From Pseudodesulfovibrio mercurii (GTDB taxonomy: Bacteria > Desulfobacterota > Desulfovibrionia > Desulfovibrionales > Desulfovibrionaceae), in assembly GCF_000189295.2 (NCBI RefSeq), contig NC_016803.1:930001-962000 (forward strand): a stretch of 32,000 nt of DNA. Direction: 5' to 3'. Positions 4,675 through 31,497 of this stretch are shown here, in pieces. The notes below the pieces were generated by a model that saw only the letters and a list, made by a program, of their open reading frames with translations, had not been told where the DNA came from and ran no database searches. Made by a program: the position numbers and the translations under genes. Position 1 is the first letter of the stretch. The number at the start of each line of letters is the position of its first letter.

Positions 4675-5400
4675 TTACTTGGTCCCTGGATAGCGGAAGG
4701 CGTCGCGCAGAAAACCGAAGGGCTCGGCCGGTTCCACGCACGGCGCGGGATCGAGCCCCTCGCGGGCGTAGAGCTCTTCGCCGCCCGCATTGTTCAGCCG
4801 GACCCACTGCACGTCGGCGGCCAGTTCGCCCCGGTCCGTGCGCACGGTCACCCGGCCCGGCACGCGGTAGCCCGCAAAGGTCCGGTAGTCGGCGAACTCC
4901 ACGGAGATCATGCCCGCGGCGGAAGAATAGCGGACCAGGAGCGGGGCCAGGTCCTCGTTGTTCAGATAGACCGTGGGCCGGGCCGCGTCGGCCGGATTCG
5001 CGCCGAGCATGAGGCACGGGTCCTCGCCGCAGAAGCCATAGTCGCCCGCGGTCACGTCCACGCCCCAGGCCTGCCAGGCCTTGACCGGATGGGGAACCAT
5101 CCAGACGAACAGGGGCGACAGGGGGAAGGGACCGGGGGTGCACGCCCCGACCACGTTGCCCAGCGACCCCACGGCCACGGCCTTGCCGTCCGCCCGCCAC
5201 TCCTGCCGCCAGCGGCCGCCCGCGTACCACAGGTCCACGGCCACGCCCGGATGGTCCGGGAAGGTCATGGTGGCCTGCCACGAACGCATGGGGCCGTAGT
5301 GCTTTTGCAGGCGCGCGGCCAGTTCCTCGCCGTCGGGCACGAAGGCGTGGGCGGGCAGCGCGGTCAGACACAGGAGCAGTAATGTCAGCAGGGTCTTCAT
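4675..5400 (-). CDS. Secreted hypothetical protein, possibly LolA-like fold
   Basis: Signal peptide MKTLLTLLLLCLTALPAHA. The N-terminal segment LAARLQKHYGPMRSWQATMTF resembles the start of LolA/LolA-like proteins. Size is 241 aa. Function is not established. Confidence 0.6.
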   Translation of the reverse strand: MKTLLTLLLLCLTALPAHAFVPDGEELAARLQKHYGPMRSWQATMTFPDHPGVAVDLWYAGGRWRQEWRADGKAVAVGSLGNVVGACTPGPFPLSPLFVWMVPHPVKAWQAWGVDVTAGDYGFCGEDPCLMLGANPADAARPTVYLNNEDLAPLLVRYSSAAGMISVEFADYRTFAGYRVPGRVTVRTDRGELAADVQWVRLNNAGGEELYAREGLDPAPCVEPAEPFGFLRDAFRYPGTK

Positions 5401-5422
5401 GGTCTCTCTGATTCCGGTTCGG

Positions 5423-5452
5423 AACGGCGGGCGCGCCGGGCGCCCGCCGGTT
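5423..5452 (-). terminator. GC-rich hairpin downstream of galU (possible terminator or attenuator, no clear U-tract)
   Basis: 12-bp stem with one bulge: aacggcgggcgc (5423-5434) pairs with gcgcccgccggtt (5440-5452) around a 5-nt loop. It lies between the galU stop (5462) and the next start (5400). It lacks a T-run, so it may not terminate efficiently. Confidence 0.35.
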
Positions 5453-5461
5453 CAATACGCA

Positions 5462-6337
5462 TTAGGTCGAGGAGCAGGACAACAGTTCCCGCAGCCGCTT
5501 GACGAGATCGTCGCGCAGTTCCTCGTCCTGCAGGGCGAAGTAGATGTTGGCCGTGAGATATTCCACCCAGTCGCCCGCGTCAAACCGCTGGCCACCCAGC
5601 CGGACCGCCAGGAGCTTGTCCCGGTCGGCCAGCCCCTGAAGGGCGTCGGTCAGCTGAATCTCGCCGCCCACGCCCGCGCGCTGGCCCTCGAGGATGTCGA
5701 ATATCTCGGGCAGCAGGACGTAGCGGCCGATGATGGCCAGGTTGGACGGGGCCTTCTCGGGCGCGGGTTTTTCCACCAGGCTGGTCACGCGGTAGGTGTG
5801 CGAGTCGATGGCCTCGCCCTGGATCACGCCGTAGCGGCTGACCTTGGCCTTGGGCACCTCGATGACGCCGATGACGGCCTTGCCGGTCTCCTTGGCGGTC
5901 TTGATCAGCTCGCCGATGCCGGTCTGCACGCCGAACATGAGGTCATCGCCGAGCATGACCGCGAAGGGCTGGTCCTGACAGACCTCGCGGGCGGTCAGCA
6001 CCGCGTGTCCCAGGCCGAGCTGCTGTTTCTGGCGCACGCCGATGACGTTGACCAGGCTGGCCACGCGGCGGACCTCCTCGAGCATGGCGGTCTTGCCCGC
6101 GCGCTCCAGGAGCTGCTCCAGGAGGAAGTTGCGGTCGAAGTGGTCCTCGATGATGGTCTTGTTCTGGTTGGTGATGAAGACCACGTCCTTCAGGCCCGCG
6201 CTGATGCCCTCCTCCACTATGTACTGCACGATGGGCTTGCGGAAGATCGGCAGCATCTCCTTGGGGACGTTCTTAGTGGCCGGGAGTGAACGGGTGCCCC
6301 AGCCAGCGACCGGGATGACGGCTTTGGTGATATCCAT
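5462..6337 (-). CDS. galU: UTP--glucose-1-phosphate uridylyltransferase
   Basis: N-terminal signature AVIPVAGWGTRSLPATKNVPKEMLPI, size 291 aa, and SD GGAGGA 4 nt upstream of the ATG. Confidence 0.9.
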   Translation of the reverse strand: MDITKAVIPVAGWGTRSLPATKNVPKEMLPIFRKPIVQYIVEEGISAGLKDVVFITNQNKTIIEDHFDRNFLLEQLLERAGKTAMLEEVRRVASLVNVIGVRQKQQLGLGHAVLTAREVCQDQPFAVMLGDDLMFGVQTGIGELIKTAKETGKAVIGVIEVPKAKVSRYGVIQGEAIDSHTYRVTSLVEKPAPEKAPSNLAIIGRYVLLPEIFDILEGQRAGVGGEIQLTDALQGLADRDKLLAVRLGGQRFDAGDWVEYLTANIYFALQDEELRDDLVKRLRELLSCSST

Positions 6338-6362
6338 GGGATCCTCCGCTGTGGAAGTTGAA

Positions 6363-7715
6363 CTACTTCAAGTGCTTCTCGCACGCCTCAACAATGTCGC
6401 CCGTCAATTTCTCCACCAGCTCCGGGTCCTGGCCCTCGACCATGACGCGGCAGACCGCCTCGGTGCCGGAGTAGCGCAGGAGCACTCGGCCCTTGCCCTT
6501 GAGGGCGGCCTCCACCCGGCGCACGGCCTCCTGGACCTCGGGGGCCTGGTCAAAGGGAACCTTGCGCTTGACGTGGACGTTCCGGAGCACCTGGGGGAAG
6601 GGTTCGAGCAGCCCGGCCAGTTCAGACAGGGGCCGCTCCCGCTCGCGCATGATGCGCAGAAGTTGCAGCGCGGCCAGGAGCCCGTCGCCCGTGGTGGCAT
6701 GGTCCATGAAAATGAGATGCCCGGACTGCTCGCCGCCCAGGGTCGCCCCCTCGCGGCGCATGGCCTCGACCACGTAGCGGTCGCCCACGTCCGTGCGCAA
6801 GAGCCGCCCGCCGTGCTCGGTCATGAACAGTTCGAGCGCCATGTTGGACATGACCGTGGCCACGAGCATGTTCCCGGGCAGCCGGTCCTTCTCCATGAGC
6901 TCCAGGGCGCACAGGGCCATGATCTGGTCGCCGTCCAGGATGCGGCCGTTCTCGTCGCAGACGATGAGTCGGTCCGCGTCGCCGTCCAGGGCGATGCCCA
7001 GGTCCGCGCCCTCCTCCACGACCATCCTGGCGATGACCTCGGGATAGAGGGAGCCGCATTTCCGGTTGATGTTCAGGCCGTCCGGGTTCACACCGACCTT
7101 GACCACCTCGGCCCCCAGCTCCTCGAGCACGTCCGGGGCCACGCCGTAGGCCGCGCCGTGGGCGCAGTCGAGCACGATCTTGAGCCCGTCCAGGGTCAGG
7201 TGCGGGGAAAAGCTGTTCTTCAGGTAGACGATGTACCGGCCGCGCGCGTCGGCGATCCGATGGGCGCGGCCCACGTCCTCGGCCGGGGGATAGTCCCACT
7301 TGGTGTCCTGGCCCAGGACCAGCTCGCTGATCTCGTCCTCGACCTCGTCGGGCAGCTTGAAGCCGTTGCGGTCGAAGAACTTGATGCCGTTGTCCATAAA
7401 CGGGTTGTGCGAGGCGGAGATGACCACGCCGAGATCGGCGCGCATGTTCCGGGTCAGAAAGGAGATGGCCGGGGTGGGCATGGGGCCGACCAGGAAGACG
7501 TCCATGCCGTTGGCGCACAGGCCGCTGGTCAGGGCGGTCTCGAAGACGTAGCCGGACAGCCGGGTGTCCTTGCCGATGACCACCCGGTGATGCTTGTCGC
7601 CGTTGCGGAAGTACTGCCCCGCCGCCAGGCCGAGCCTGAGGGCGATCTCGGGGGTCATGGGGAAGATGTTCCCCTGCCCCCGCAGGCCGTCGGTTCCGAA
7701 AAGCCTCTGTTTCAT
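6363..7715 (-). CDS. glmM: Phosphoglucosamine mutase
   Basis: N-terminus [12 protein letters not shown] and phosphoserine loop [18 protein letters not shown] at 7713-7715 is preceded by GGAG with a 6-nt spacer. The track start at 7727 is a TTG with no SD. Confidence 0.9.
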
Positions 7716-7746
7716 GACACGCTCCAACTTGTCGCCCGGCGGGCGG

Positions 7747-8652
7747 CTAATTCTTTTTGATGACGGTGGTGACCGTCTCGGGATTCTTCTTTTCGAGCCT
7801 GCACCCTTCGGGAAGGGTCACCTCGTAGTTCATTTCGAACTCGCCCTCGGCCACCTTGCCGCCGAAGACCACGGAGGCCAGGATGGCCTTCCGGTATTCG
7901 TCGTCGTGGAACAGGAAGACCGGGCCCTGGATGAGCAGGCGCACGTAACGTTGGGAGACCGAGACCTTGTACCCCTCGGGGTCCTGGTACTCGATGGGCA
8001 CCTTGACCCATATCTCGCGGGTCTTGGGCGCGAAGTAGGCCTCCACGTTGACCTGGCCGGGCGAGGCCTCGATCTCGTCGGGGACCTCCAGGGCCACGTC
8101 CTCGGCCCAGGACCGGGGCACGTCCTCGGGGAAGTCGCCCTTGAGGACCACCCGGGTCTTGGAAATCTTTCTGAGCAGGGTCTCGGGCCCCCGGATGGTG
8201 ACCACGTCGGGCGAGGCCGTGACCTCCTGCAACCGGTAGTCGGAATTGAGGTTGCCCGCCCAGGCGGCCTCCACGGTGATCTTCTTGGAGATGCGCCGGT
8301 CCACGGTCAGGCGCAGCCGGTTGGGCCGGACCTCGATGATCTCGTAGGTGGAGGACAGGGGAATCTTGGCCGGGTCGATGTCCACCACCTGCTCGCCGAT
8401 CTTGAGGTTGCTGACGTTGATCGGATAGACCAGGTTCTGGGAGGACAGGTTGCCGACCAGCCCCTTGGGCCCGCGCAGGCGGACCTGAATCTTGTCCACC
8501 AGGCCGTCCTCGATGATCAGCCCCTCGGGCGGGTTGGTCATGACCACGGGCATGTCCACCCACGTCTCGACCACCTCACGGCCGGTGACCAGGAACCAGG
8601 TGAACACGGCCAGGGCTACGGACAGCAGTACGGTTTGCCAGTTCTTGAGCAT
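7747..8652 (-). CDS. cdaR: YbbR-domain protein, CdaR-type regulator of diadenylate cyclase
   Basis: N-terminal TM segment [16 protein letters not shown] followed by repeated YbbR-like modules (e.g. VPINVSNL..., [15 protein letters not shown]..., [11 protein letters not shown]...). It begins 1 nt after the cdaA stop. Confidence 0.8.
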
Positions 8653-8653
8653 G

Positions 8654-9403
8654 TCAGCGCCCCAAAGCGTTCTTGAGCACGCGCCGCAGGCGCGTCTCGT
8701 CCAGGCTGGTGGTCAGGCGGCCGTTCATGGCCACGGAAACTTCGCCCCGCTCCTCGGAGACCACCACGGTGATGGCGTCCGACCCCTCGGAAATGCCGAG
8801 CGCCGCCCGGTGCCGGGTGCCGTACATGGGCTGGCCGCGCAGCTTGTTGGACAGGGGCAGGATGCAGGCCGCGGCCACGATGCGGTCGCGGCGGACGATG
8901 ATCGCCCCATCGTGCAGGGGCGTGTCGGTGAAAAAGATGGTCTCGATGAGTTCCTTGTTGACCTTGGCGTCCAGCTCGATGCCGCGCTCGATGATGTCGC
9001 CCAGCGGCATGTTCTTCTCGATGACGATGATCGCGCCGGTGGAGGAGTGCGACATGGACATGACCGCCTGGGTCAGCTGGTCCAGGGTGTCGTCGCGCAC
9101 GTTGGACTTGGTCCAGAACCGCTTGGTGCCCACCGAGGCGAGCCCCTTGCGGATGTCGGTCTTGAACAGGATGACCACCACCAGGAACAGGGAGGTCAGG
9201 AACTCGCCGAGGAGCGCGTTCAGGGTGTAGAGGTTGAATTTCTCGGCCACGTAGTAGACCACGAGCACGATGACCAGGCCGTAGAGCACGGCGGCGGCGC
9301 GGGTCCCCCGGACGAGGACGATGATGTTGTAGTAGATGAAGGCCACCAGCCCGATGTCGAGCAGGACCCTCCAGGTGACTTGAATACCGAAAAGCTCAAA
9401 CAT
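8654..9403 (-). CDS. cdaA: Membrane-bound diadenylate cyclase (c-di-AMP synthase), CdaA/DacA type
   Basis: Three N-terminal hydrophobic helices, then a DAC domain with the DGA motif (PLHDGAIIV) and RHR motif (GTRHRAALGIS). Confidence 0.9.
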   Translation of the reverse strand: MFELFGIQVTWRVLLDIGLVAFIYYNIIVLVRGTRAAAVLYGLVIVLVVYYVAEKFNLYTLNALLGEFLTSLFLVVVILFKTDIRKGLASVGTKRFWTKSNVRDDTLDQLTQAVMSMSHSSTGAIIVIEKNMPLGDIIERGIELDAKVNKELIETIFFTDTPLHDGAIIVRRDRIVAAACILPLSNKLRGQPMYGTRHRAALGISEGSDAITVVVSEERGEVSVAMNGRLTTSLDETRLRRVLKNALGR

Positions 9404-16020: not shown

Positions 16021-16150
16021 CGTACGTTTACTCCCTCAGCGATTGCCTTGATATCAACAAAGAGATGGAGTTTGGCCCATATTACCATGAATGTAAAGGG
16101 ATTTGGCCCCCGGAAAATGGGGAAAACCCAGGCGGCGCATGGCCGCGCGG

Positions 16151-17731
16151 CTACTGGTGCTTCTTCAGCCAGTCGTGGAACTGCCTGAGGGTCAGGCACC
16201 GGCTGGCCGGGCCGCTGCGCACGTAGAATTCCTCGCCCTTGGCCGCGTCCAGAATGGCCGGGGCCTGGGCCTGGATACAGTGCACGCGCAGGACCCGCCT
16301 GTCGTCCACCGCGATGATCCGGCTGTCGATGTAGCGCGAGAACTCGGTGCCGATGTGCCGGTCCACCAGATTGTTGAAATGCAGGAGCGCCCTGTCGTCG
16401 CTCTCGAAACCGTCCTCGTCGAAGCCGGTCACGGTGCCGTCGTCGGCCACGCCGATGAGCAGGGTCCCGCCCTCGGTGTTGAGGAAGGCGGACACGGTCT
16501 TCAGGCAGGCGTGCTCGATCTCCTTGCCGTTCTTGCCGGACTTGAGGTTGAAGCGCAGGGTCTGCTTGAATTCCAGCCGGCCGCCCTCCCCCGAACGGAT
16601 GAGGTCGAGCACGTCCCCGGCGCTGGCTGCCGCCTCGCGGCGGCGGCCCAGGGACTCGATGCGCTCACGGTTGCGGTGCAGGACGAAGAGCACGCCGAAG
16701 GCCATGAGGATGAGGACCACGGCCCCGGCCTGGAGGAAGGAGTCGCTGGTCAGGGTGGACAGGACGTTCTTGCGCGGCACGGCCACGCCCAGGGAGAGGG
16801 TGTCGCCGAAGATGGACAAGGGCATGGCCCAGGTCCACCAGACCTCGTGGTCGCTGACGAAGGAAAAGGGCTTGCCCGGCGCGCCGTCAGGGGCCTTGGC
16901 ATGGGTGGCCAGCCCGGACACGGCCAGCCGGACCACGGGATCGGGCAGCTGCTCCGGGGCCAGGGCCCGTCCGGCCAGGTCCGGACCAACGTCCGCGCCC
17001 AGGCCGCTCACGGGCATGGCCCGGCCGTCGCCCCAGTAGAGGAAAATCCGTTCGGCACCGCCCCGCTCCGCCTCGCTCAGCTGGGACAGGATGGCCTCGG
17101 CCGGAAAGGCGAAGGAAAGCATGAGCCGGTCGCCCGCGCCCGACTCCGCCAGGGAGGAGGCCGTGATCCAGGCCGCGCTGACGTGATGGAAGCGGCCCGC
17201 GCTGCGCCAGTTGACCTGGCCCGGCTCCAGGTGGCTGAACTCGTCGGACAGGACGCGGTCCACCTGGTGCAGGTCCATGTCCCAGCCGGTGAAGGGCTCC
17301 TTGTCCGGCCTGCCGTCCTTGAGCAGGGTCCAGGACACGGCGGTGTGCAGTTCGTCGGGCACGGCCTCGACCGTGCCGCCGAAGCGCCGGGTCAGCAGGT
17401 AGCGCAGCCCCTGGCCGTCGCTGACCATGATGGCCGAAAGGTTCTGGTGGTCCCGGAGGACCGTGCCGAATTCCCGGCGCAGGGCCTCGGACTTGAGGCT
17501 CTTGAGCAGCCCCTGGCCCATCTCCTGGTTGGAGTTGCGCACCGCGTTGAGGAGCACGGTCACCGCGCCGGACAGGCCGCGCGCGGAACTCTCCACGGCC
17601 ACCACCGCGGCGTCGTGGCGGATCTCGCGCACGCCCATGTAGGCCAGCGCGCCCACGGCGGCCACCACGAAGATGACGCCGTAGAAGACCAGCTGGTAGA
17701 GTTGCCTGCCCCGGAGACCGTGCATGCTCAC
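16151..17731 (-). CDS. Membrane sensor-like protein: TM, ~300-aa extracytoplasmic region, TM, cytoplasmic AlbA_2 (Schlafen-core-like) domain
   Basis: TM1 is LYQLVFYGVIFVVAAVGALAYMGV and TM2 is FLQAGAVVLILMAFGVLFVLH. The C-terminus carries AlbA_2 hallmark motifs GGRLEFKQTL and LKTVSAFLNTEGGTLLIGVADDGTVTGF. The GTG start overlaps the ybeY stop (GTGA) and has GGAGG 7 nt upstream. Confidence 0.7.
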   Translation of the reverse strand: MSMHGLRGRQLYQLVFYGVIFVVAAVGALAYMGVREIRHDAAVVAVESSARGLSGAVTVLLNAVRNSNQEMGQGLLKSLKSEALRREFGTVLRDHQNLSAIMVSDGQGLRYLLTRRFGGTVEAVPDELHTAVSWTLLKDGRPDKEPFTGWDMDLHQVDRVLSDEFSHLEPGQVNWRSAGRFHHVSAAWITASSLAESGAGDRLMLSFAFPAEAILSQLSEAERGGAERIFLYWGDGRAMPVSGLGADVGPDLAGRALAPEQLPDPVVRLAVSGLATHAKAPDGAPGKPFSFVSDHEVWWTWAMPLSIFGDTLSLGVAVPRKNVLSTLTSDSFLQAGAVVLILMAFGVLFVLHRNRERIESLGRRREAAASAGDVLDLIRSGEGGRLEFKQTLRFNLKSGKNGKEIEHACLKTVSAFLNTEGGTLLIGVADDGTVTGFDEDGFESDDRALLHFNNLVDRHIGTEFSRYIDSRIIAVDDRRVLRVHCIQAQAPAILDAAKGEEFYVRSGPASRCLTLRQFHDWLKKHQ

Positions 17732-18222
17732 AGGGGTGCCTCCGCATGTTCGAGCAGGGCCAGGTCCACGGCCGCGTCGGTCATGTCGAACATGACCTCG
17801 CCGTGGTCGAACCCGGCCAGATGCAGCAGGCCGTGGGCCAGCAGACGGGCCAGGTGCTCCAGGGGGAGCTGGCCGTACAGGTCGGTCTCCCTGGCCAGCG
17901 CGTCCACGGACAGGGCCAGTTCGCCGAGGAATTCGCCGTCGTCCTCCGGGTCGCCGACCTCCCCGTCCGCCAGGGCGTCGGTCCCGTCCCCGTCGCGGGC
18001 CGGAAAGCTGAGGATGTTGGTCGGGCCGGTGCAGCCCAGGAACTCGCGGTTCAGGCGGGCGATCTCGCGGTCGTCCACCAGCTTGAGCAGGAAGGTGCGG
18101 CCGGTCAGTCCCAGGGCGTCCAGCAGGGTTGCGGCCAGTCCGGACAGCTCGCGCCGGGACAGGGGAAACCTCGGGTCGAGCCGGGTCTCGTAGAGGATGT
18201 CGGCCGGGCCGGTCACGCTCAT
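17728..18222 (-). CDS. ybeY: Endoribonuclease YbeY (16S rRNA maturation factor)
   Basis: Zinc-binding motif HGLLHLAGFDH, size 164 aa, and an ATG that overlaps the phoH stop (ATGA). Confidence 0.88.
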   Translation of the reverse strand: MSVTGPADILYETRLDPRFPLSRRELSGLAATLLDALGLTGRTFLLKLVDDREIARLNREFLGCTGPTNILSFPARDGDGTDALADGEVGDPEDDGEFLGELALSVDALARETDLYGQLPLEHLARLLAHGLLHLAGFDHGEVMFDMTDAAVDLALLEHAEAPL

Positions 18223-19151
18223 TCCGCCTCGCCTTCGCGGGTTTCGTAGGCCTTGACGATGCGTCCCACCAGGGGGTGGCGGATGACGTCCCGCTCGTCG
18301 AAAGTCACGAAGCGCACGCCCTTGACCCCGTCGAGGATGCGCCGGGCGTGGACCAGGCCGGACTTGGCGTGGACCGGCAGGTCGATCTGGGTGATGTCGC
18401 CCGTGACCACGGCCTTGGAGCCGAAGCCGAGCCGGGTCAGGAACATCTTCATCTGCTCGGGCGTGGTGTTCTGGGCCTCGTCCAGGATGATGAAGGCGTC
18501 GTTCAGGGTGCGGCCGCGCATGAAGGCCAGGGGGGCCACCTCGATGACCCCGGAGTCCTGGTAGTCCTGGACCTTGGCGAAGTCGAGCATGTCGTGCAGG
18601 GCGTCGTACAGGGGCCGCAGGTAGGGGTTGATCTTCTCGGCCAGATCGCCGGGCAGGAAGCCGAGCTTCTCGCCCGCCTCCACGGCCGGGCGGGTCAGGA
18701 CGATGCGCTTGACCTCGCGCCGACTCAGGGCGCCCACGGCCATGGCCACGGCCAGGTAGGTCTTGCCCGTGCCCGCCGGACCGATGCCGAAGGTCATGTC
18801 CGCGTCGCGGATGGCGTCGAGATATTCCCGCTGGTTCAGGGACTTGGGCGACACGGTCCGCTTGCCGGAGGTGGCGTAGACGTCGCCCTTGAAGACCTCG
18901 CCGACGTCGGCCGAGGGCTGGCGTTCGAGGATGCGGCAGGCGAAGTCCACGTCCTGGGGATACACGGCCTTGCCGCGCCGGACCATGGCGTAGAGCTGGG
19001 TCAGGACCTGGGCGGCCAGGTCGGCCCTTCCCTCCTCCCCTTCCGGGGCGGTGATGGTCAGGGTGTTGCCCCGGCTGTCGATGCGCACGCCCGCGCGCTC
19101 GGCCAGGAGCTTGAGGTGCTGGTCGTGGGGACCGAAAAGCTGGCCGGCCAT
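18219..19151 (-). CDS. phoH: PhoH-like ATPase (PhoH/YbeZ family)
   Basis: Walker A GPAGTGKTYLAVAMAV and Walker B-like IILDEAQN. The first ATG at 19151 has no SD. An in-frame CTG at 19185-19187 sits 7 nt downstream of GGGAGGA, so the true start may be 12 codons upstream. Confidence 0.88.
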   Translation of the reverse strand: MAGQLFGPHDQHLKLLAERAGVRIDSRGNTLTITAPEGEEGRADLAAQVLTQLYAMVRRGKAVYPQDVDFACRILERQPSADVGEVFKGDVYATSGKRTVSPKSLNQREYLDAIRDADMTFGIGPAGTGKTYLAVAMAVGALSRREVKRIVLTRPAVEAGEKLGFLPGDLAEKINPYLRPLYDALHDMLDFAKVQDYQDSGVIEVAPLAFMRGRTLNDAFIILDEAQNTTPEQMKMFLTRLGFGSKAVVTGDITQIDLPVHAKSGLVHARRILDGVKGVRFVTFDERDVIRHPLVGRIVKAYETREGEAE

Positions 19152-23382: not shown

Positions 23383-26343
23383 CTACCCCAGGCCCAGGCG
23401 GTCCAGGGTCAGGAGCTTGCGGCCCGAGTAGTCGAGGATGCGGTCGATGAGTTCGGCGTGGGGCAACCCCGCGGCACGTACCTCGGCCATGAGCCCGGCC
23501 ACGATCTTCTCCTGTTCGAGGTAGCCGAAGACCACCTCGCGCACGTCGCGCAGGGAGACCAGCCGGTCGGCCCAGCCCATGCCCTCCTGATAGAGCATCT
23601 TGGCCGAGATGAACGAGGCCAGCAGGGCCAGCTGGTGGGCGCGCGGCAGGTCGGTGACGATCCGCTCGCGGTACTTCTCGACCAGCACGGCCGGACAATA
23701 GGCCAGCAGGACCTCGACCAGCTCCGGGTCGTCGGCCACCCGGTCCACCGAGGCCGTGAGCACGCCGTCCACGCGGTCGGCCAGGGCGTTGATGGACGCG
23801 GACAGGGCGTAGGACAACTCGGTGATGGTCCGTCCGCCCCCGGACAGCTTGTACTCGCGCATGAGCACGCGCGCCTCGGAACGCGCCCGCAGCCGCAGGA
23901 TGTCCAGGAGCTGCCGGATATACTCGTCCTTGATGCCCAGGAACTCCTCCTCGCTGAGGATGAGCCCGGCCAGGATCTCGTAGGACGAGCAGATGACCCC
24001 AGTCTTGTTGGCCGACGGGCCGGGGACCACCAGGACGCCCGCCCTTTCGAGCTGGGCGCGGGCGTCGGTCGAGATGAAGATGTTCGCTCCCTCGACGATG
24101 CCCCTGGCCGAGGGCGTGCCGTCCTTTTGCAGGAATTCCTTCCAGTTGGACATGTTCACCGTATCCGGCCTGCCGCCCGAGGGGATGAAGATGTCGGCCA
24201 CCACGGTATTGTGCAGGGTATTGCGCACCCGGGTCCCGTTCGGCTCCGCCGTGGAGACCGCCAGGGCGCCCTCCCCCCTGAGCCTGGTCCGGTCAAAGTC
24301 GGCGGCCTTGAGGTCGTTGTCCATGAGCCGCAGCAGTTCGGCGTGGTCCATGCCCGCCGGGTCGAAGACCGCGCCGTGGCCATCGCTCATGGCCACGATC
24401 CGCGCGTTGTCGCCATACTCGCGCATGAGGATGCGCATGACGTTGGAGGCCACGTCCCCGGCCGGACCGCCGGTCAGCTTGACCGTGAACGGCTGCTTTC
24501 GGGGGTCGATGCCCAGCGTGCGCAGCAGCTCCTCGGCAAAGACGATGACGCCCTCGGAGGTCACGCCGTACTTCTTGTGGGCGATGCCCGCGCCGGGCTT
24601 GGAACTCATGAAGGCGCTGGGCCACTTGTAGCCGCGCCGGGCCGCCCGGTCGGCCATCCACTGGATGTGGGCCGGGGTGATGTTCTCGTCCGGGCCCAGG
24701 AAGATGATCTCCTCGCGGTTGAGGTAGTCCACGATGCCGGGCTGTACGAAACCCTCAGCCCCTTCCGGCACCACCAGAAGGTCCAGGAAGGAGTCGACCA
24801 TGGACTTGACTGCCAGGTCGATGTCCCCTTCGGGACCGAGGAGGATGACCGCCTTGGACCCGCCCTCGGGGATGTCCTTGTTCTTGAACTGCTGGGCGCG
24901 GGCCAGCTTGGTGACCTCGTCCAGGAGCCGGTTGGACTCCACCTCGAACTGCTCCTGGCTCCAGGTCCGGACCACGCGCACGCCGCCGCGCGCCATGTCG
25001 CGGTAGCGCACCTGGAAGGCCCAGCTGTAGGGACCGTGGAAGCAGTACAGGCCGAAGGGCCGCTCCCTGCGGGGCAACGGGGCCAGGATGAGGGGGTCGA
25101 GCCGGAAGCTCAGGCCGAACTTGTGCTCCAGGTAGTAGTTGGTGCGCAGGGTGTAGCGGAAGAACTTGTAGACGTAGGTCAGGATGTCGCGGTGGATGGC
25201 GTTGTCCACGTCGCGGATGGCCGCGCGCACCCGGTCGCGCCGTTCGCGCACGGCCGCGGGCCGGTCGCCGGTGAAGGCCGGGTCGCAGCGCACCCGGAAG
25301 TAGTCCATGAGCAGCCGGGTCACGTCCCGATGCTTGAGGATGGCGTAGACGATGCGCGACGAGGTGTAGGCGTGCAGGTCCCGCCGGATGAGGAACTGAT
25401 GGGCGAACTCGCCCGCGGCCTGCATGAGCATGACCTGGCCGATCTCCCAGCCGTCCTCGTAGGCCAGCGCCTCCAGGCCGTGGGGCGCGAACCACTTGCA
25501 CAGTTCAAGCTGCCGCTTGAGGCGCAGCCAGCGCTCGCCGCCCTCCTCGAGGTCCACGCGCGTGCGGTCGAGGTAGAAGCTCATGATGGAGATGGCGGGC
25601 AGGCCGGGCCGCTCGAACTCGTCGGCATAGGCCCGGTCCACGGGAATGCCCTCCCTGGCGAAGACGTTGACCACGGTGTGCAGCAGCCCCTTCTTGGGCG
25701 GCTGGACCATGGCCACGCCGATGCGGTCGAAGCCGGGGTGGACCTCCTTTTCGAGCTGCACCTGGACGCGCTCCTCGTTCTCCACGCAGCCGCAGGTCTT
25801 GAAGTGGCGCACGGCCCGGCCCGGCTCGAACTTCTCCATGTAGTCCTCGCTGACCCAGCCGAGGAACCGCTCGAACCCGTTCAGGTCGCCGGGGGCGAGG
25901 TCCATCTGCCCGGCCCTGGCCTTTTCCAGGACCTCGCGCACGCCCACGTTGTCCGCCGCGCAAGCGGGCTGCGGCCCGAGGACGAAGGTGTCCAGCCGGA
26001 TGGTGTCGTCGCGGCTGGAGTAGATGCGCGCGTGCTGAATGTCCTTGTCGCGGTACTGCTTGAGGACCCAGCCCAGGGTGTCCATGTCCCCGCCGGGGGA
26101 GATGTGCGTCACCCGCGAGCCGCACGGGCTGTGCAGGGCGATGGCCTGCTTCTCCTCCCGGACCATGCCGGAGATCAGGGCCATGAGGTGCTTGACCTGC
26201 TCGTCCTCGCCGTGGGTCTGGAAATAATACTCCGGCATGTCGGCATAGAACCACGGTACCAGGGTGGCCGCCGAGCTTTCCAGGGTCTTCAGGAGCTTCC
26301 GCCGAATCTTCTCCGGATCAACAGGCCTTGCGCCGTCCATCAT
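23383..26343 (-). CDS. Large (about 110 kDa) NAD-specific glutamate dehydrogenase-like protein
   Basis: Catalytic-lysine region FKNKDIPEGGSKAV and dinucleotide loop KLTGGPAGDVASNV match the large GDH class, embedded in long N- and C-terminal extensions. The start is placed at ATG 26341-26343 (MMDGARPVDPEK, SD AGGGAG). The 38 upstream codons of the track ORF are Arg/Pro/Ser-rich and contain the candidate promoter. Confidence 0.8.
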   Translation of the reverse strand: MMDGARPVDPEKIRRKLLKTLESSAATLVPWFYADMPEYYFQTHGEDEQVKHLMALISGMVREEKQAIALHSPCGSRVTHISPGGDMDTLGWVLKQYRDKDIQHARIYSSRDDTIRLDTFVLGPQPACAADNVGVREVLEKARAGQMDLAPGDLNGFERFLGWVSEDYMEKFEPGRAVRHFKTCGCVENEERVQVQLEKEVHPGFDRIGVAMVQPPKKGLLHTVVNVFAREGIPVDRAYADEFERPGLPAISIMSFYLDRTRVDLEEGGERWLRLKRQLELCKWFAPHGLEALAYEDGWEIGQVMLMQAAGEFAHQFLIRRDLHAYTSSRIVYAILKHRDVTRLLMDYFRVRCDPAFTGDRPAAVRERRDRVRAAIRDVDNAIHRDILTYVYKFFRYTLRTNYYLEHKFGLSFRLDPLILAPLPRRERPFGLYCFHGPYSWAFQVRYRDMARGGVRVVRTWSQEQFEVESNRLLDEVTKLARAQQFKNKDIPEGGSKAVILLGPEGDIDLAVKSMVDSFLDLLVVPEGAEGFVQPGIVDYLNREEIIFLGPDENITPAHIQWMADRAARRGYKWPSAFMSSKPGAGIAHKKYGVTSEGVIVFAEELLRTLGIDPRKQPFTVKLTGGPAGDVASNVMRILMREYGDNARIVAMSDGHGAVFDPAGMDHAELLRLMDNDLKAADFDRTRLRGEGALAVSTAEPNGTRVRNTLHNTVVADIFIPSGGRPDTVNMSNWKEFLQKDGTPSARGIVEGANIFISTDARAQLERAGVLVVPGPSANKTGVICSSYEILAGLILSEEEFLGIKDEYIRQLLDILRLRARSEARVLMREYKLSGGGRTITELSYALSASINALADRVDGVLTASVDRVADDPELVEVLLAYCPAVLVEKYRERIVTDLPRAHQLALLASFISAKMLYQEGMGWADRLVSLRDVREVVFGYLEQEKIVAGLMAEVRAAGLPHAELIDRILDYSGRKLLTLDRLGLG

Positions 26344-26387
26344 GCATCTCCCTTGGGTACGGGTCAGTTTTTCGCTTGTCTTCCTTG

Positions 26388-26403
26388 TGCATGGACGCGG
26401 CCA
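26388..26403 (-). promoter_or_regulatory. Candidate sigma54 (-24/-12) promoter for the GDH gene
   Basis: The minus strand reads TGGCCG-CGTCC-ATGCA. The GG and GC elements have canonical spacing relative to TGGCAC-N5-TTGCW. It lies about 45 nt upstream of the proposed ATG. GG-N10-GC also arises by chance in GC-rich DNA. Confidence 0.3.
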
Positions 26404-26579
26404 GCGCGTCAACCCCGTGAGAGGGCCCGAGGAGGACCGGCGAGGCGGCCGGGCCATAGCCCGAAGACGTTATAAATGTCTTAGTTCTCAATCTAATGCC
26501 GTGGACATAAAATGTGCGACAGCGTAATGACTCGGGTATGACCACCTGGGAAAGAGCATTCGAAAAGGGAGCAGGCATT

Positions 26580-27941: not shown

Positions 27942-27975
27942 CGGCCGCGTCCCTCGGGATGCGGCCGCTTTTTTG
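27942..27975. terminator. Bidirectional rho-independent terminator
   Basis: CGGCCGC-gtccctcgggat-GCGGCCG (27942-27967) is followed by CTTTTTTG on the plus strand. An A-rich tract precedes it, which gives a U-tract for the convergent minus-strand gene ending at 27986. Confidence 0.7.
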
Positions 27976-27985
27976 TGCGCGAAAA

Positions 27986-28495
27986 CTAGTTTTCCAGGGT
28001 GGACAGGAGTTCCTGGGCCTCGCTCATGCGCGCGAAGGAGGTGTTTTTGAAGACCTCGCCCTCCACGGCCTTGACGAACTCGTCGTAGGTCATGATCCGG
28101 AAGTCCATCATCACGCCCTTGACCTTGAAGTACGCCTCAAGGAAGGCGTAGACCGGCTCGTCCCCGAGGCACTTGGCCAGGTCGCGGCCGTTGTTCATGG
28201 CCGTGAACGGCTTGTTCAGGCCGCCCAGGAAGAACATGTCCAGGCCGGACCGCCCGTCCGTGACCACCCCGAGCAGGTTGAAGTTCATGAGCCGGGCCGC
28301 GAACTCCTCGGTCATGTCGGGAAATTCCAGGAGGTCCTTTTTGGGGTACATGCCCACGAAGACCATCTGCCCGCCCTCCTCGGCCATGGTGTGGCGGAAG
28401 ACGTGCTCGTCCCGGTTCCTGCGGGCGGCCTTGACGGTCTCGTAGAGGTCCAGGGCAAAGGCGAGTTTCAGTTCGTCGGCGACTTTCTGGTCCAT
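27986..28495 (-). CDS. Hypothetical protein (169 aa), co-operonic with the UbiD-family decarboxylase
   Basis: The ORF has a good SD (GGAGAA 4 nt upstream of the ATG) and starts 11 nt after the UbiD stop. Amino-acid composition is balanced, unlike the antisense artefacts. I recognise no family motif. Confidence 0.65.
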   Translation of the reverse strand: MDQKVADELKLAFALDLYETVKAARRNRDEHVFRHTMAEEGGQMVFVGMYPKKDLLEFPDMTEEFAARLMNFNLLGVVTDGRSGLDMFFLGGLNKPFTAMNNGRDLAKCLGDEPVYAFLEAYFKVKGVMMDFRIMTYDEFVKAVEGEVFKNTSFARMSEAQELLSTLEN

Positions 28496-28506
28496 GTGCT
28501 TCTCCG

Positions 28507-30351
28507 TTAGATGATGCCGTGCAGCGGGCCGCCCTCGGCGCCCAGTTCGTCCACGCGCTTCTCCACCTCGGGGTCCTCCTCAAGGGGCGGCGCGTGGTAG
28601 GTCTTGAGTCTCGCGTCCACGACCAGGGCCTTGTCCGCGCCCCAGTGCTTGGCGTGGGTGAATGCGCCCGCTCCGTAGATGTCCGTGGCCGGGTCGGAGC
28701 GGGTGAAGGTCACCCACAGGAAATTGTCCCAGTTCGCGGCCGTGAAGCGCGCGTCGTCGGCCACCACGACGAGCGGGAACCCCTCGATGCCCGGCACCCG
28801 CGCCAGGGTCTCGCCCAACCGCTCCAGGGCCGGGTCCTGCCGGTCCCGTCCCCGACGGTGCCTGGGCCCCTTGAGGACCAGGATGCCCGGAGCGAAGACC
28901 CGTGGATCGCGGAAGCCGCGCGGCAGGTCGAGCCCGGCCGGGAGTTCGGTCCCCAGCTCGCGCTTGGGCGGCCCGGCCACGGCGAAGATGACCTTGGAGC
29001 CCTGGTTCAGGCTGATGCCCGAGTAGTCCAGGGTGTCGATGGTCGTCCGGGTGATGAAGTGTAGGTCGCGGGTCAGGTCCGCCCGCTCGAGCATGTGGCG
29101 GAAAAAGGCGGGCACGTCGTGGCAGCCCACCCCGGCGGGCAGGTCCTCGCGGGCCGCGATGAGCACGTACTTCGACAGCGCGGTCTGGGTGTTGCCGAGC
29201 AAACCCATGGCGTTGGTCAGCAGCTCCTGGGGCTGGCGCTCGGCGGCATACGGCACATAACGTTCGCTGCCCACGGCCAGAAGCAGCGGGTGTACCCCGG
29301 CCGCGTCCACGGCGTGGACCTCGTGCACCCCCGCGAAGACCGACGGCACCAGCTCGGCGGTCAGCTCGTGGACGAACTGGCCGAACAGGGTGTCCTCCTG
29401 GGGCGGGCGGCCCACGGTGGTGAAGGGCCAGACCGCGTCGTCGCGGTGGTAGACCCTGTCCACCTTGAGGACCGGAAAATCGTGAGCCAGACTGTAGTAG
29501 CCCAGGTGGTCGCCGAAGGGGCCCTCGGGCTTCTCCCCGCCCCGGACGATGGTCCCGCAGATGCAGAAGTCCGCCTCGGCCGGGATGGGCAGCTGGCCCG
29601 GCCGCCTGACCATGGCGATGCGGTGGCCGCCCAGGGCCCCGGCGAAAAAGAGTTCGGCCAGCCCCTCGGGCAGAGGCATCATGGCGGCCACGGTCATGGA
29701 CGGTGCGCCGCCCACCGCGATGTTGACCTTGAGCGCTTCGCCCCGGCGCAGGGCCTCGGCGTGGTGGTGACCGATGCCGCGATGGATCTGGTAGTGCAGC
29801 CCCACCTCCCGGTCCTGCACGTAGTCGTTGCCCGACAGCTGGACGCGATACATGCCCAGGTTGGAACCGGCGTAGCCGGGCCGGGCCGGGTCCTCGGTGT
29901 AGACCTGGGGCAGGGTCACGTAGGGCCCGCCGTCCAGGGGCCAGGACTTGAGCTTGGGCAGGCTGGACACGGCCGTCTCGTTGGCCATGACCGGGCCGTC
30001 GGACACGGTCCTGGGCAGGGTGTGCCAGGCGGTCCGGGGCGCGCCCAGGTACTGCCACGGACGGCGCAGCAGCTCCATGGGCTCCAGCTTGAGCTTCATC
30101 AGCCGTTCCACCGTGTCCACGGTGTCCCGGAACAGGAAGCGCATGCGTTCGCGGGTGCCGAAGAGGTTCGCGGCCATGGGGAAGCGGCAGCCCCGGACGT
30201 TGCTGAAGAGCAGGGCCGGACCCTTGGCCCGGAAGACGCGGCGCTGGATGGCGCCGATCTCCAGGTCCGCGTCCACGCACTTGTCGATGCGGACGAGTTC
30301 GCCCCGCGCCTCGAGGGCGTCGAGGCATTCACGCGTGTTCCTGTATCCCAT
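28507..30351 (-). CDS. UbiD-family decarboxylase, long form (futalosine-pathway menaquinone decarboxylase type, MqnL-like)
   Basis: N-terminus ECLDALEARGELVRIDKCVDADLEIGAIQRRV and overall UbiD-like sequence. The 614-aa length matches the long UbiD homologues of organisms that use the futalosine pathway. A ubiX gene lies 1.3 kb away. Confidence 0.85.
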   Translation of the reverse strand: MGYRNTRECLDALEARGELVRIDKCVDADLEIGAIQRRVFRAKGPALLFSNVRGCRFPMAANLFGTRERMRFLFRDTVDTVERLMKLKLEPMELLRRPWQYLGAPRTAWHTLPRTVSDGPVMANETAVSSLPKLKSWPLDGGPYVTLPQVYTEDPARPGYAGSNLGMYRVQLSGNDYVQDREVGLHYQIHRGIGHHHAEALRRGEALKVNIAVGGAPSMTVAAMMPLPEGLAELFFAGALGGHRIAMVRRPGQLPIPAEADFCICGTIVRGGEKPEGPFGDHLGYYSLAHDFPVLKVDRVYHRDDAVWPFTTVGRPPQEDTLFGQFVHELTAELVPSVFAGVHEVHAVDAAGVHPLLLAVGSERYVPYAAERQPQELLTNAMGLLGNTQTALSKYVLIAAREDLPAGVGCHDVPAFFRHMLERADLTRDLHFITRTTIDTLDYSGISLNQGSKVIFAVAGPPKRELGTELPAGLDLPRGFRDPRVFAPGILVLKGPRHRRGRDRQDPALERLGETLARVPGIEGFPLVVVADDARFTAANWDNFLWVTFTRSDPATDIYGAGAFTHAKHWGADKALVVDARLKTYHAPPLEEDPEVEKRVDELGAEGGPLHGII

Positions 30352-31420: not shown

Positions 31421-31497
31421 TGGTGGGCTATGCAGGATTCGAACCTGCGACCTCTTGCTCCGGAGGCAAGCACTCTATCCAACTGAGCTAATAGCCC
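31421..31497 (-). tRNA. tRNA-Arg (anticodon CCG)
   Basis: The reverse complement folds as a 77-nt cloverleaf. Acceptor is GGGCTAT/ATAGCCC, D arm GCTC-AGTTGGATA-GAGT, anticodon stem CTTGC/GCAAG with loop CTCCGGA, and T arm GCAGG-TTCGAAT-CCTGC. Discriminator is A and the CCA end is encoded. Confidence 0.9.

Follow-up and report, generated by a model that had tools for sequence, protein, structure and literature searches.

What does the gene that follows phoH and ybeY in Pseudodesulfovibrio mercurii encode, and what might its product do next to these two genes of RNA metabolism? The locus lies in a stretch of 32,000 nucleotides (contig NC_016803.1, positions 930,001 to 962,000), referred to below as the window, whose own coordinates are used throughout. 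An earlier note made from the sequence alone had described an open reading frame (ORF) of 526 amino acids (aa) with a GTG start, and had read its product as a transmembrane (TM) sensor with an AlbA_2 domain as its only cytoplasmic module. The ORF was found at 16151..17731 on the minus strand. We are highly confident of the architecture of its product, here called X: a periplasmic sensor of the dCache fold is connected across the membrane to a Schlafen/AlbA_2 domain. A fuller reading, to which we give a slight preference, is that X works as a one-component receptor across the membrane, in which rearrangement of a dimer or oligomer gates an RNase of the single-lobe Schlafen type. The parts of the gene are as follows.

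16151..17731, minus strand: whole gene of the membrane dCache-Schlafen/AlbA_2 protein, 526 aa, an ORF with a GTG start
17630..17731, minus strand: short cytoplasmic N-terminus and TM1, aa 1-34; hydropathy peak at aa 12-34, within the continuous helix 8-72 of the model
16745..17629, minus strand: periplasmic sensor of the dCache fold, aa 35-329, with a long stalk helix and two alpha/beta PAS-like modules (~100-210 and 228-319); from the AlphaFold2 model and Foldseek
16673..16744, minus strand: TM2, aa 330-353; hydropathy peak at 331-353, helix 330-353 in the model
16589..16672, minus strand: Arg-rich helical linker, aa 354-381, running from TM2 directly to the predicted nuclease domain; helices 355-364 and 371-380 in the model
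16151..16588, minus strand: cytoplasmic Schlafen/AlbA_2 domain, aa 382-526, and the stop codon; from PF04326 and the fold search
16565..16588, minus strand: putative catalytic motif E382-G-G-R-L-E387-F-K389, of the form E-x4-(E/D)-x-K; from a profile alignment to E-S-A-S-I-E-F-K of rat Slfn13
16442..16444, minus strand: D430 in G-V-A-D, putative third acidic active-site residue; in the alignment it falls on the last D of G-V-D-D of rat Slfn13, which we take to be D248

Kyte-Doolittle analysis gave exactly two hydrophobic segments, at about aa 12-34 and 331-353 and with about 295 aa between them, in agreement with the two TM helices bracketing about 300 aa that the earlier note had seen. The full-length AlphaFold2 model, built with 73 homologues, had a mean predicted local distance difference test (pLDDT) score of 91.4. 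It comprises, in order, a helix at 8-72 (TM1 and stalk), two alpha/beta modules, TM2, short helices at 355-380 and a compact alpha+beta domain at 386-525. When the whole model was compared with the Protein Data Bank (PDB) using Foldseek, the top 50 matches were without exception ligand-binding domains of the dCache type (probability 1.00, E between 1.6e-8 and 1.5e-5; template-modelling score normalised to the target 0.25-0.63), including 2p7j, 3lid, vpHK1S-Z8, MkcA, TlpA, PscC, Mlp24 and PctA. The model has the order expected of this fold, a long N-terminal helix followed by membrane-distal and membrane-proximal PAS-like modules, and the sensor domain fills the entire region between the two TM helices. 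The extracytoplasmic sensor proposed for this region is thus supported by both the model and the fold matches. The linker at aa 354-381 contains no HAMP or other module, and five of its residues within aa 354-375 are Lys or Arg.

An exhaustive HMMER search with a full-length profile of X against 1.84 billion representatives clustered at 50% identity returned 15,283 matches. The best 150 of these (E≤3e-90), which cover the whole profile or, for truncated entries, most of it, were examined as family representatives. Relatives with about 27% identity gave sub-threshold matches to Pfam dCache_1 (E 2e-5 to 9e-9; 24-36 bits against a cutoff of 45), and a profile of the ectodomain only retrieved its own family and one adenylate cyclase fragment annotated with dCache_1 (E=2.9e-9). 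No kinase, GGDEF or methyl-accepting chemotaxis protein (MCP) output was found with the ectodomain profile, in a search limited by its word index, so other outputs may exist. An R-x-W-[YF] motif (RPW[YF]-type) was present in 78 of the 150 representatives. On the evidence of the model and of these matches, the ectodomain is a diverged dCache domain.

The cytoplasmic side was examined in the same manner. PF04326 (SLFN_AlbA_2) is the sole Pfam match of X. It spans aa 382-511 and takes in positions 1-115 of the 118 in the profile, with E=2.2e-19 and 70.6 bits where the gathering score is 25.3; an NCBIfam scan of the protein gave no match. Modelled alone, the isolated domain reached a pLDDT of 94 and showed the two-layer alpha+beta fold of AlbA_2. 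Its top 30 Foldseek matches in the PDB all had the AlbA_2/Schlafen/SAMD9 fold (probability 0.82-1.00, TMq up to 0.65), including the bacterial DIP2311 (3lmm), the SAMD9 tRNase (7ksp/9o0d), 2kyy, a RecG-related N-domain and SLFN5/11/12/13/14. These results confirm a C-terminal AlbA_2 domain as the only cytoplasmic module. No second AlbA_2-like lobe was detected, as there is one Pfam stretch and one such domain in the model; X is therefore single-lobe. At the sequence level, matches to SLFN12 and rat Slfn13 were obtained with E ~1e-3 to 2e-4.

Both motifs singled out in the earlier note, GGRLEFKQTL and VSAFLNTEGGTLLIGVADDGTVTGF, were located in the translation. Upstream of D430 lie the SAFLN 'Schlafen box' (aa 414-418) and a glycine stretch (G421-G422). 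The E-x4-E-x-K motif was invariant in alignments A1 and A2, and D430 in A1, A2 and A3. The complete nuclease signature was found in all 150 representatives, each with a D at the position of D430, and the spacing from the lysine to the Schlafen box was identical in 148; a narrow Schlafen-box pattern had matched 68 of the 150, and the widened pattern used for the count matched every one. After the EFK motif the family has a conserved, family-specific basic insertion of 5 residues (T-L-R-x-N-L-K-x-G-K). A register of EFK taken from single-sequence phmmer against the PDB was shifted by this insertion and was rejected in favour of the profile-search alignment. In prokaryotic and mammalian Schlafen RNases, the Ex4(E/D)xK motif, the Schlafen box and the glycine stretch have been defined experimentally (PMC13056530, PMC13462974, bioRxiv 10.64898/2026.05.29.728809), and the catalytic residues E17/D22/K24 of CbCash fit the E382/E387/K389 pattern (PMC13462974). 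E382/E387/K389 together with D430 fit the experimentally validated motifs (PMC13462974, PMC13056530, bioRxiv 10.64898/2026.05.29.728809). Judged by its residues, the cytoplasmic domain has every element of the catalytic signature known from proven Schlafen RNases; we would expect a metal-dependent endoribonuclease acting on tRNA or rRNA. The previous label, a nucleic-acid-binding or nuclease-like domain, can be sharpened in view of this signature and its retention in every representative.

The architecture is a large, widely distributed receptor family and no local oddity. Matches at E≤1e-30 numbered 2,486, which sets an upper limit, since this threshold can also be reached by strong matches that cover AlbA_2 only. 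Clusters at 50% identity with the architecture thus number 150 as a minimum and ~2,500 as a maximum. Exactly two TM-like segments were found in 119 of the 134 full-length representatives. Across 206 members the geometry was uniform, with medians of 298 aa for the ectodomain (interquartile range 292-305), 31 aa for the linker from TM2 to the E motif (31-34) and 145 aa from the E motif to the C-terminus (144-148). No other domain was found in these 206 members, and nothing lies C-terminal of the nuclease domain. A scan of species-representative genomes showed the architecture at 59 of the 80 best loci. The taxa include Desulfobacterales, Desulfobulbales, Chromatiaceae (Marichromatium, Thiocapsa, Thiorhodococcus, Thiobaca), Competibacteraceae, and relatives of Verrucomicrobiota/Kiritimatiellales, among others.

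A second membrane-embedded Schlafen architecture was observed at seven loci of archaeal metagenome-assembled genomes (MAGs; L051, L062, L064, L072, L074, L075 and L077). In these proteins of ~370-390 aa, 4-6 TM segments make up a polytopic N-terminus, and the AlbA_2 domain lies at the C-terminus. The AlbA_2 domains are 37-51% identical to that of P. mercurii and have in common with it a T-L-R-x-N-L...K-x-[IV]-E loop after EFK. The hosts belong to Pacearchaeota, Woesearchaeota, Thermoplasmatota, Methanomethylophilus and Nanoarchaeota.

Among the extracellular sensors of bacteria, Cache domains form the largest family, and they are not known to feed any but classical outputs, that is, chemotaxis, phosphorelay, and cyclic nucleotides and dinucleotides. 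X resembles dCache_1 receptors (PctA, Mlp24 and TlpA, the kinase vpHK1S-Z8 and GGDEF proteins) in having TM1, a stalk helix, two PAS-like modules and TM2, with an ectodomain of ~300 aa and a fold match probability of 1.00. However, its output is a predicted nuclease and not an MCP, HisKA/HATPase, GGDEF/EAL or cyclase module, it lacks HAMP, and its ectodomain has diverged in sequence beyond the reach of the Pfam dCache_1 model. With SLFN11/12/13/14 and the SAMD9/9L tRNase, X shares the nuclease C-lobe fold and the catalytic residues, but it lacks the N-lobe, the linker or helicase domains, and the SAM, SIR2 and NTPase modules. In contrast to mammalian Schlafens, a homodimer of X would have to provide the second lobe. 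IRE1, with a sensor across the membrane, and RNase L, with a ligand-binding domain, have an RNase controlled by ligand-driven dimerisation or oligomerisation. The likeness of X to these two is in logic and not in homology, since their KEN-domain RNase with its kinase module is unrelated in fold, and no kinase-like intermediate is evident in X.

The characterised prokaryotic Schlafens pSlfn5 (Ig-like-Slfn), DUF262-Slfn, Cash (Csx15-Slfn) and SLFN-pAgo share with X the single-lobe domain, E-x4-(E/D)-x-K, the Schlafen box and the glycine stretch (PMC13056530, PMC13462974, bioRxiv 10.64898/2026.05.29.728809), as well as a sensor in the same polypeptide and an activity expected to depend on the arrangement of protomers. 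Their sensors are cytoplasmic and serve for phage proteins, cA4 or nucleic acids, whereas that of X is an extracytoplasmic dCache domain in a membrane protein. X also differs in the C-terminal position of its Schlafen domain, in the 5-residue basic insertion, and in its housekeeping, vertically inherited context, which is not a defence island. Known partners of prokaryotic Schlafens are a HisKinase-type ATPase, a helix-turn-helix (HTH), DUF5929, Ig-like, DUF262, TBP-like, methyltransferase, NACHT, Csx15 and pAgo; 17% of partners carry no annotation, and the share of genes located away from defence neighbourhoods is 30.4% (PMC13056530, PMC13462974). The main texts of the Schlafen surveys do not mention a membrane, transmembrane or Cache form, although one may be listed among the 55 Slfn domain compositions that Taboada et al. 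give in Supplementary Table 2 (PMC13056530). For its models the reference Cache survey drew solely on proteins whose signalling outputs were known (PMC4822843), a choice that would have excluded a dCache-Schlafen class. The literature searched contained no work combining AlbA_2 with a transmembrane sensor, consistent with the earlier note, which knew of no characterised example. The dCache-Schlafen protein can be seen with equal right as a sensor-fused prokaryotic Schlafen or as a Cache receptor whose output is new; it does not form a wholly new category.

In the receptor mechanism that we favour, the periplasmic dCache domain, anchored by TM1 and TM2, would bind an extracytoplasmic ligand. 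The signal would travel via TM2 and the helical linker of fixed length (~31 aa) to the single-lobe Schlafen (AlbA_2) domain with its intact, predicted Mg2+-dependent E-x4-E-x-K ... D site. A ligand-driven rearrangement of a dimer or oligomer would then switch RNA cleavage on or off. The substrate would most probably be tRNA, and possibly rRNA, and the output a throttling or remodelling of translation. Such a rearrangement is the most likely switch because Cache receptors are dimers and single-lobe Schlafens need juxtaposed copies. The single-lobe Schlafen tRNase CbCash is activated in cA4-induced filaments (PMC13462974), and in SLFN-pAgo a dimer of single-lobe domains mimics the mammalian N/C-lobe horseshoe (bioRxiv 10.64898/2026.05.29.728809).

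Several points weigh against this mechanism. X gave no Pfam Cache match at E≤1. The RPW[YF]-type stretch is replaced in the Pseudodesulfovibrio clade, so that ligand binding may be altered or lost here. A Cache/CHASE-type domain, which the earlier note had considered for the central region, is thus present as a dCache fold in Foldseek but not as a Pfam match. The topology is based on hydropathy, a modest positive-inside bias (7 versus 5 Lys/Arg) and the general rule that Cache domains are extracytoplasmic. DNA binding has also been seen for some mammalian Schlafens and SAMD9, so the RNA substrate is a prediction, and no biochemical or genetic data on any family member were found in the literature.

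The position of the gene bears on what the predicted nuclease might act with. The features at its junctions are the following.

17739..17743, minus strand: GGAGG, Shine-Dalgarno-like, within the end of ybeY and 7 nt 5' of the GTG; read directly from the sequence
17728..18222, minus strand: ybeY, 164 aa, whose stop overlaps the start of the sensor gene; PF02130 E=6.8e-20, TIGR00043 E=2e-22
18219..19151, minus strand: phoH, 310 aa, whose stop overlaps the ybeY start; PF02562 E=1.8e-97
16132..16146, minus strand: weak hairpin with a T-tract, resembling a terminator, GCGGC-CATGC-GCCGC and then CTGGGTTTTC, 5 nt past the stop codon; from a terminator scan

The GTG at 17731-17729 overlaps the ybeY TGA at 17730-17728 as GTGA, and the ybeY ATG overlaps the phoH stop as ATGA (18222-18219). 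Both overlaps and the GGAGG 7 nt upstream are present in the sequence as the earlier note had read them. The gene product is 100% identical to the P. mercurii protein P0001, which is annotated at 524 aa and therefore from an ATG at 17725-17723, two codons downstream of the GTG. The N-termini of homologues align from this ATG onward. As the ATG lies 2 nt past the ybeY stop, the sensor gene is tightly coupled to ybeY with either start, and the proposed tight coupling of the three genes holds.

The public names of the protein and its orthologues conflict: 'helix-turn-helix domain-containing protein', 'ATP-binding protein', 'AAA-4 family protein' and 'AlbA family DNA-binding domain-containing protein' are all in use. 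Neither an HTH nor an ATPase domain is detectable with Pfam, so the HTH, ATP-binding and AAA-4 names are misleading; the first two are presumably legacies of the former 'divergent AAA' name of PF04326. A 70%-identical copy of 558 aa (P0016) was observed in a eukaryotic transcriptome assembly (EukProt, TRINITY contig) and is most likely bacterial contamination of that dataset.

On the 3' side, the hairpin at 16132..16146 was the single match of the terminator scan, against 1.8 in shuffled sequences; it is no better than chance and therefore only suggestive of an operon end. An AT-richer spacer of 130 nt separates the end of the sensor gene from argF. The spacer contains a perfect 10-bp palindrome, TTGATATCAA, at 16048-16057, a candidate operator for argFGH, for example an ArgR-type site. 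The stability of the 3' untranslated region fold was not unusual (z=0.83). No sigma-70-like promoter was found inside the phoH-ybeY-X unit in a scan that is uninformative for this organism, and an Rfam scan of the whole window gave no riboswitch or sRNA family near the unit.

The earlier note had left it to a neighbourhood survey whether this gene order is conserved across Desulfovibrionales. The order phoH-ybeY-X was present in 9 of 9 genomes or contigs of the Pseudodesulfovibrio/Salidesulfovibrio/D. oxyclinae clade (42-100% identity), and is thus not confined to one genome. The ybeY-X junction is -4 nt here (or +2 with the ATG start) and -4, -14, +15, +2, -1, +2 and +13 nt in seven relatives; for the eighth (L001) the adjacency of ybeY and X only was shown. 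However, neither phoH nor ybeY was found within 7 kb in any of the 79 relatives outside the clade, including Fundidesulfovibrio, also of the Desulfovibrionaceae. Among 120 of the 698 YbeY homologues, those with a named source were all from Pseudodesulfovibrio except two from unclassified MAGs. Conservation of the order was seen within the clade and not among the relatives sampled beyond it. The usual third genes of phoH-ybeY clusters are ybeX/corC, pgpH/7TM-HD and dgkA. Like these, X is a membrane protein whose gene follows ybeY directly, is co-directional with it and is tightly joined to it, but its family is unrelated to theirs, and its linkage was found only in one Desulfovibrionaceae clade.

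A Peripla_BP_6 gene lies between X and argF in 3 of the 9 clade genomes or contigs and is absent from the P. mercurii window; X therefore stays with ybeY and not with the arg genes. The three inserted genes (L086 7643-8803, L088 5697-6800 and L089 5660-6805) encode a periplasmic binding protein of the branched-chain amino-acid type and occur in P. sediminis, in a contig with a P. indicus protein (P0015) and in Pseudodesulfovibrio sp. zrk46. This protein might be a co-receptor or an unrelated insertion. The larger block, ATP-binding cassette (ABC) importer-phoH-ybeY-X-argFGH, is collinear in the clade, as is ftsH wherever the DNA reached it. Because of this collinearity, the adjacency of X and ybeY may be inherited by phylogenetic inertia and not selected. 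X is probably the last cistron of a phoH-ybeY-X unit in the clade, co-expressed with these RNA-metabolism genes. The suggestion that X acts jointly with PhoH and YbeY was not upheld: it is based on synteny restricted to the clade, which hints only weakly at a functional tie.

All-against-all ORF clustering of 80 loci revealed no neighbour common to the whole family. Synteny was lineage-specific only: ABC genes of the Mla/MCE type recurred at 7-10 loci of Desulfobulbales, and in Chromatiaceae the neighbours look like pepA and lptF/G-like genes. Judged by eye, seven loci of Desulfobulbales/Desulfocapsa (L012, L014, L019, L023, L025, L026 and L032) have an Mla/MCE-like ABC cluster a few kb away, containing an ATPase, an MlaE-like permease, an MCE-like protein and a lipoprotein; an NhaA-like antiporter gene lies near some of these loci. 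In 3 of 10 distant relatives, a GGDEF or GGDEF-EAL gene adjoins immediately (L002 5688-6779, L024 4867-6930, L007 8667-9794). A GNAT acetyltransferase gene stands directly downstream in 2 of the 10 (L004 8574-9035, L010 8701-9222), a sample too small to compare with chance.

All prokaryotic Schlafens characterised so far are sensor-fused tRNase effectors of phage defence, such as RorSlfn5 and EcoSlfn7 (PMC13056530), Cash (PMC13462974), SLFN-pAgo (bioRxiv 10.64898/2026.05.29.728809) and Avs9, which shows toxicity (PMC12680541). X, with its intact catalytic signature, could likewise serve abortive infection, its dCache domain detecting the adsorption of phage, damage to the envelope or a periplasmic molecule derived from the phage, and its Schlafen domain depleting tRNA so that phage production stops. 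However, we consider this unlikely in view of the surroundings of the gene. It sits in a core housekeeping block (ftsH, argHGF, ybeY, phoH, ABC importer), and the other genes of the window are also of housekeeping type (priA, skp, cdaA/cdaR, folP, arsR, an ArsP-type permease, gdh, cheV, ubiD); no defence or mobile gene was found within 10 kb. It has also been conserved vertically in the same slot in every clade genome or contig, down to 42% identity, unlike the patchy genes of defence. The sole PADLOC match, to pAgo, was marginal (E=0.005) and covered a part of the AlbA_2 domain; two relatives had no match at all. The 20 flanking genes at 10 diverse relatives included no recognisable defence gene, in a limited sample that is not a formal DefenseFinder score; they encode GGDEF/EAL, GNAT, solute-binding, PLD, TatD, squalene synthase, FemAB-like, LTXXQ and similar proteins. 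Moreover, 30.4% of prokaryotic Schlafens are not associated with defence (PMC13056530).

A partnership with YbeY and PhoH, in which an envelope signal would reach 16S rRNA 3'-end processing or 70S ribosome quality control, is compatible with the receptor mechanism. It would explain the tight, probably translationally coupled junctions, and an order kept throughout the clade while the gene 3' of X varies. SLFN13 and SLFN14 cleave rRNA besides tRNA, which also fits such a role, and a preprint describes cleavage of tRNA or rRNA by mammalian Schlafens. Nevertheless, with phoH and ybeY missing near all relatives outside the clade, no family-wide neighbour, and a collinear block in which the adjacency may simply be inherited, we regard the partnership as less probable than a role in phage defence. 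Least probable of these alternatives, and in our view distinctly improbable, is a non-catalytic AlbA_2 domain that would make X a membrane-tethered nucleic-acid binder, for example a DNA-binding regulator in the style of ToxR/CadC or an RNA tether. The database name 'AlbA family DNA-binding domain-containing protein' points this way, as do the crystal structure of SAMD9 AlbA_2 with DNA (7ksp) and the binding of single-stranded DNA by SLFN11 (PMC13462974). Yet the acidic and lysine catalytic residues are invariant in 150 of 150 diverged representatives, which a mere binder can hardly explain, and mammalian Schlafens without catalysis typically lack these residues (PMC13462974). X also lacks the HTH or ATPase domain that its database names would imply. 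We therefore retain the one-component receptor with a gated Schlafen RNase as the preferred reading.

Some further features of the window were noted. Directly downstream of folP and ftsH, and in the orientation of the arg/ybeY/phoH run, lie cdaA (c-di-AMP synthase, DAC and CdaA_N) and cdaR (regulator with YbbR domains) at 7747-9403 on the minus strand. An NAD-specific glutamate dehydrogenase of 1,024 aa (Bac_GDH_CD and ELFV_dehydrog) is encoded at 23383-26457 on the minus strand and adjoins the arsR-family and ArsP_1-type permease genes. Two plus-strand ORFs, at 6042-7760 (572 aa) and 27959-28510 (183 aa), had no Pfam match, and their third-position GC was 0.73 and 0.60, respectively, against 0.84-0.95 in all other picked genes but one; they may be spurious or foreign. 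No confident gene call was obtained for 4790-6042. The sole Rfam match of the window was one tRNA gene at 31424-31497 on the minus strand.

The dCache-Schlafen family is large and uniform in geometry, and it occurs in cultivated organisms, among them Marichromatium, Thiocapsa, Desulfosarcina and the genetically tractable P. mercurii ND132; the hypothesis can therefore be put to a direct test. Two well-studied fields, Cache and Schlafen biology, come together here, and neither is known to have described the pairing. Among prokaryotic Schlafens, of which ~30% lie outside defence neighbourhoods (PMC13056530), the family is a strong candidate for a role other than immunity. A wider proposal, that dCache-Schlafen proteins form a widespread receptor class converting an extracellular cue into tRNA/rRNA cleavage for physiology and not immunity, and that this class has been wired into the ribosome-maturation operon phoH-ybeY in Pseudodesulfovibrio, is possible but doubtful. 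If the preferred reading is true, X would be the first membrane-embedded Schlafen that senses the cell exterior, and its nuclease output would be a new form of signal transduction, from ligand to RNA cleavage without a second messenger or transcription factor. Under the wider proposal, the class would bring translation under ligand-gated control and would be, in its logic, the prokaryotic equivalent of IRE1 and RNase L.

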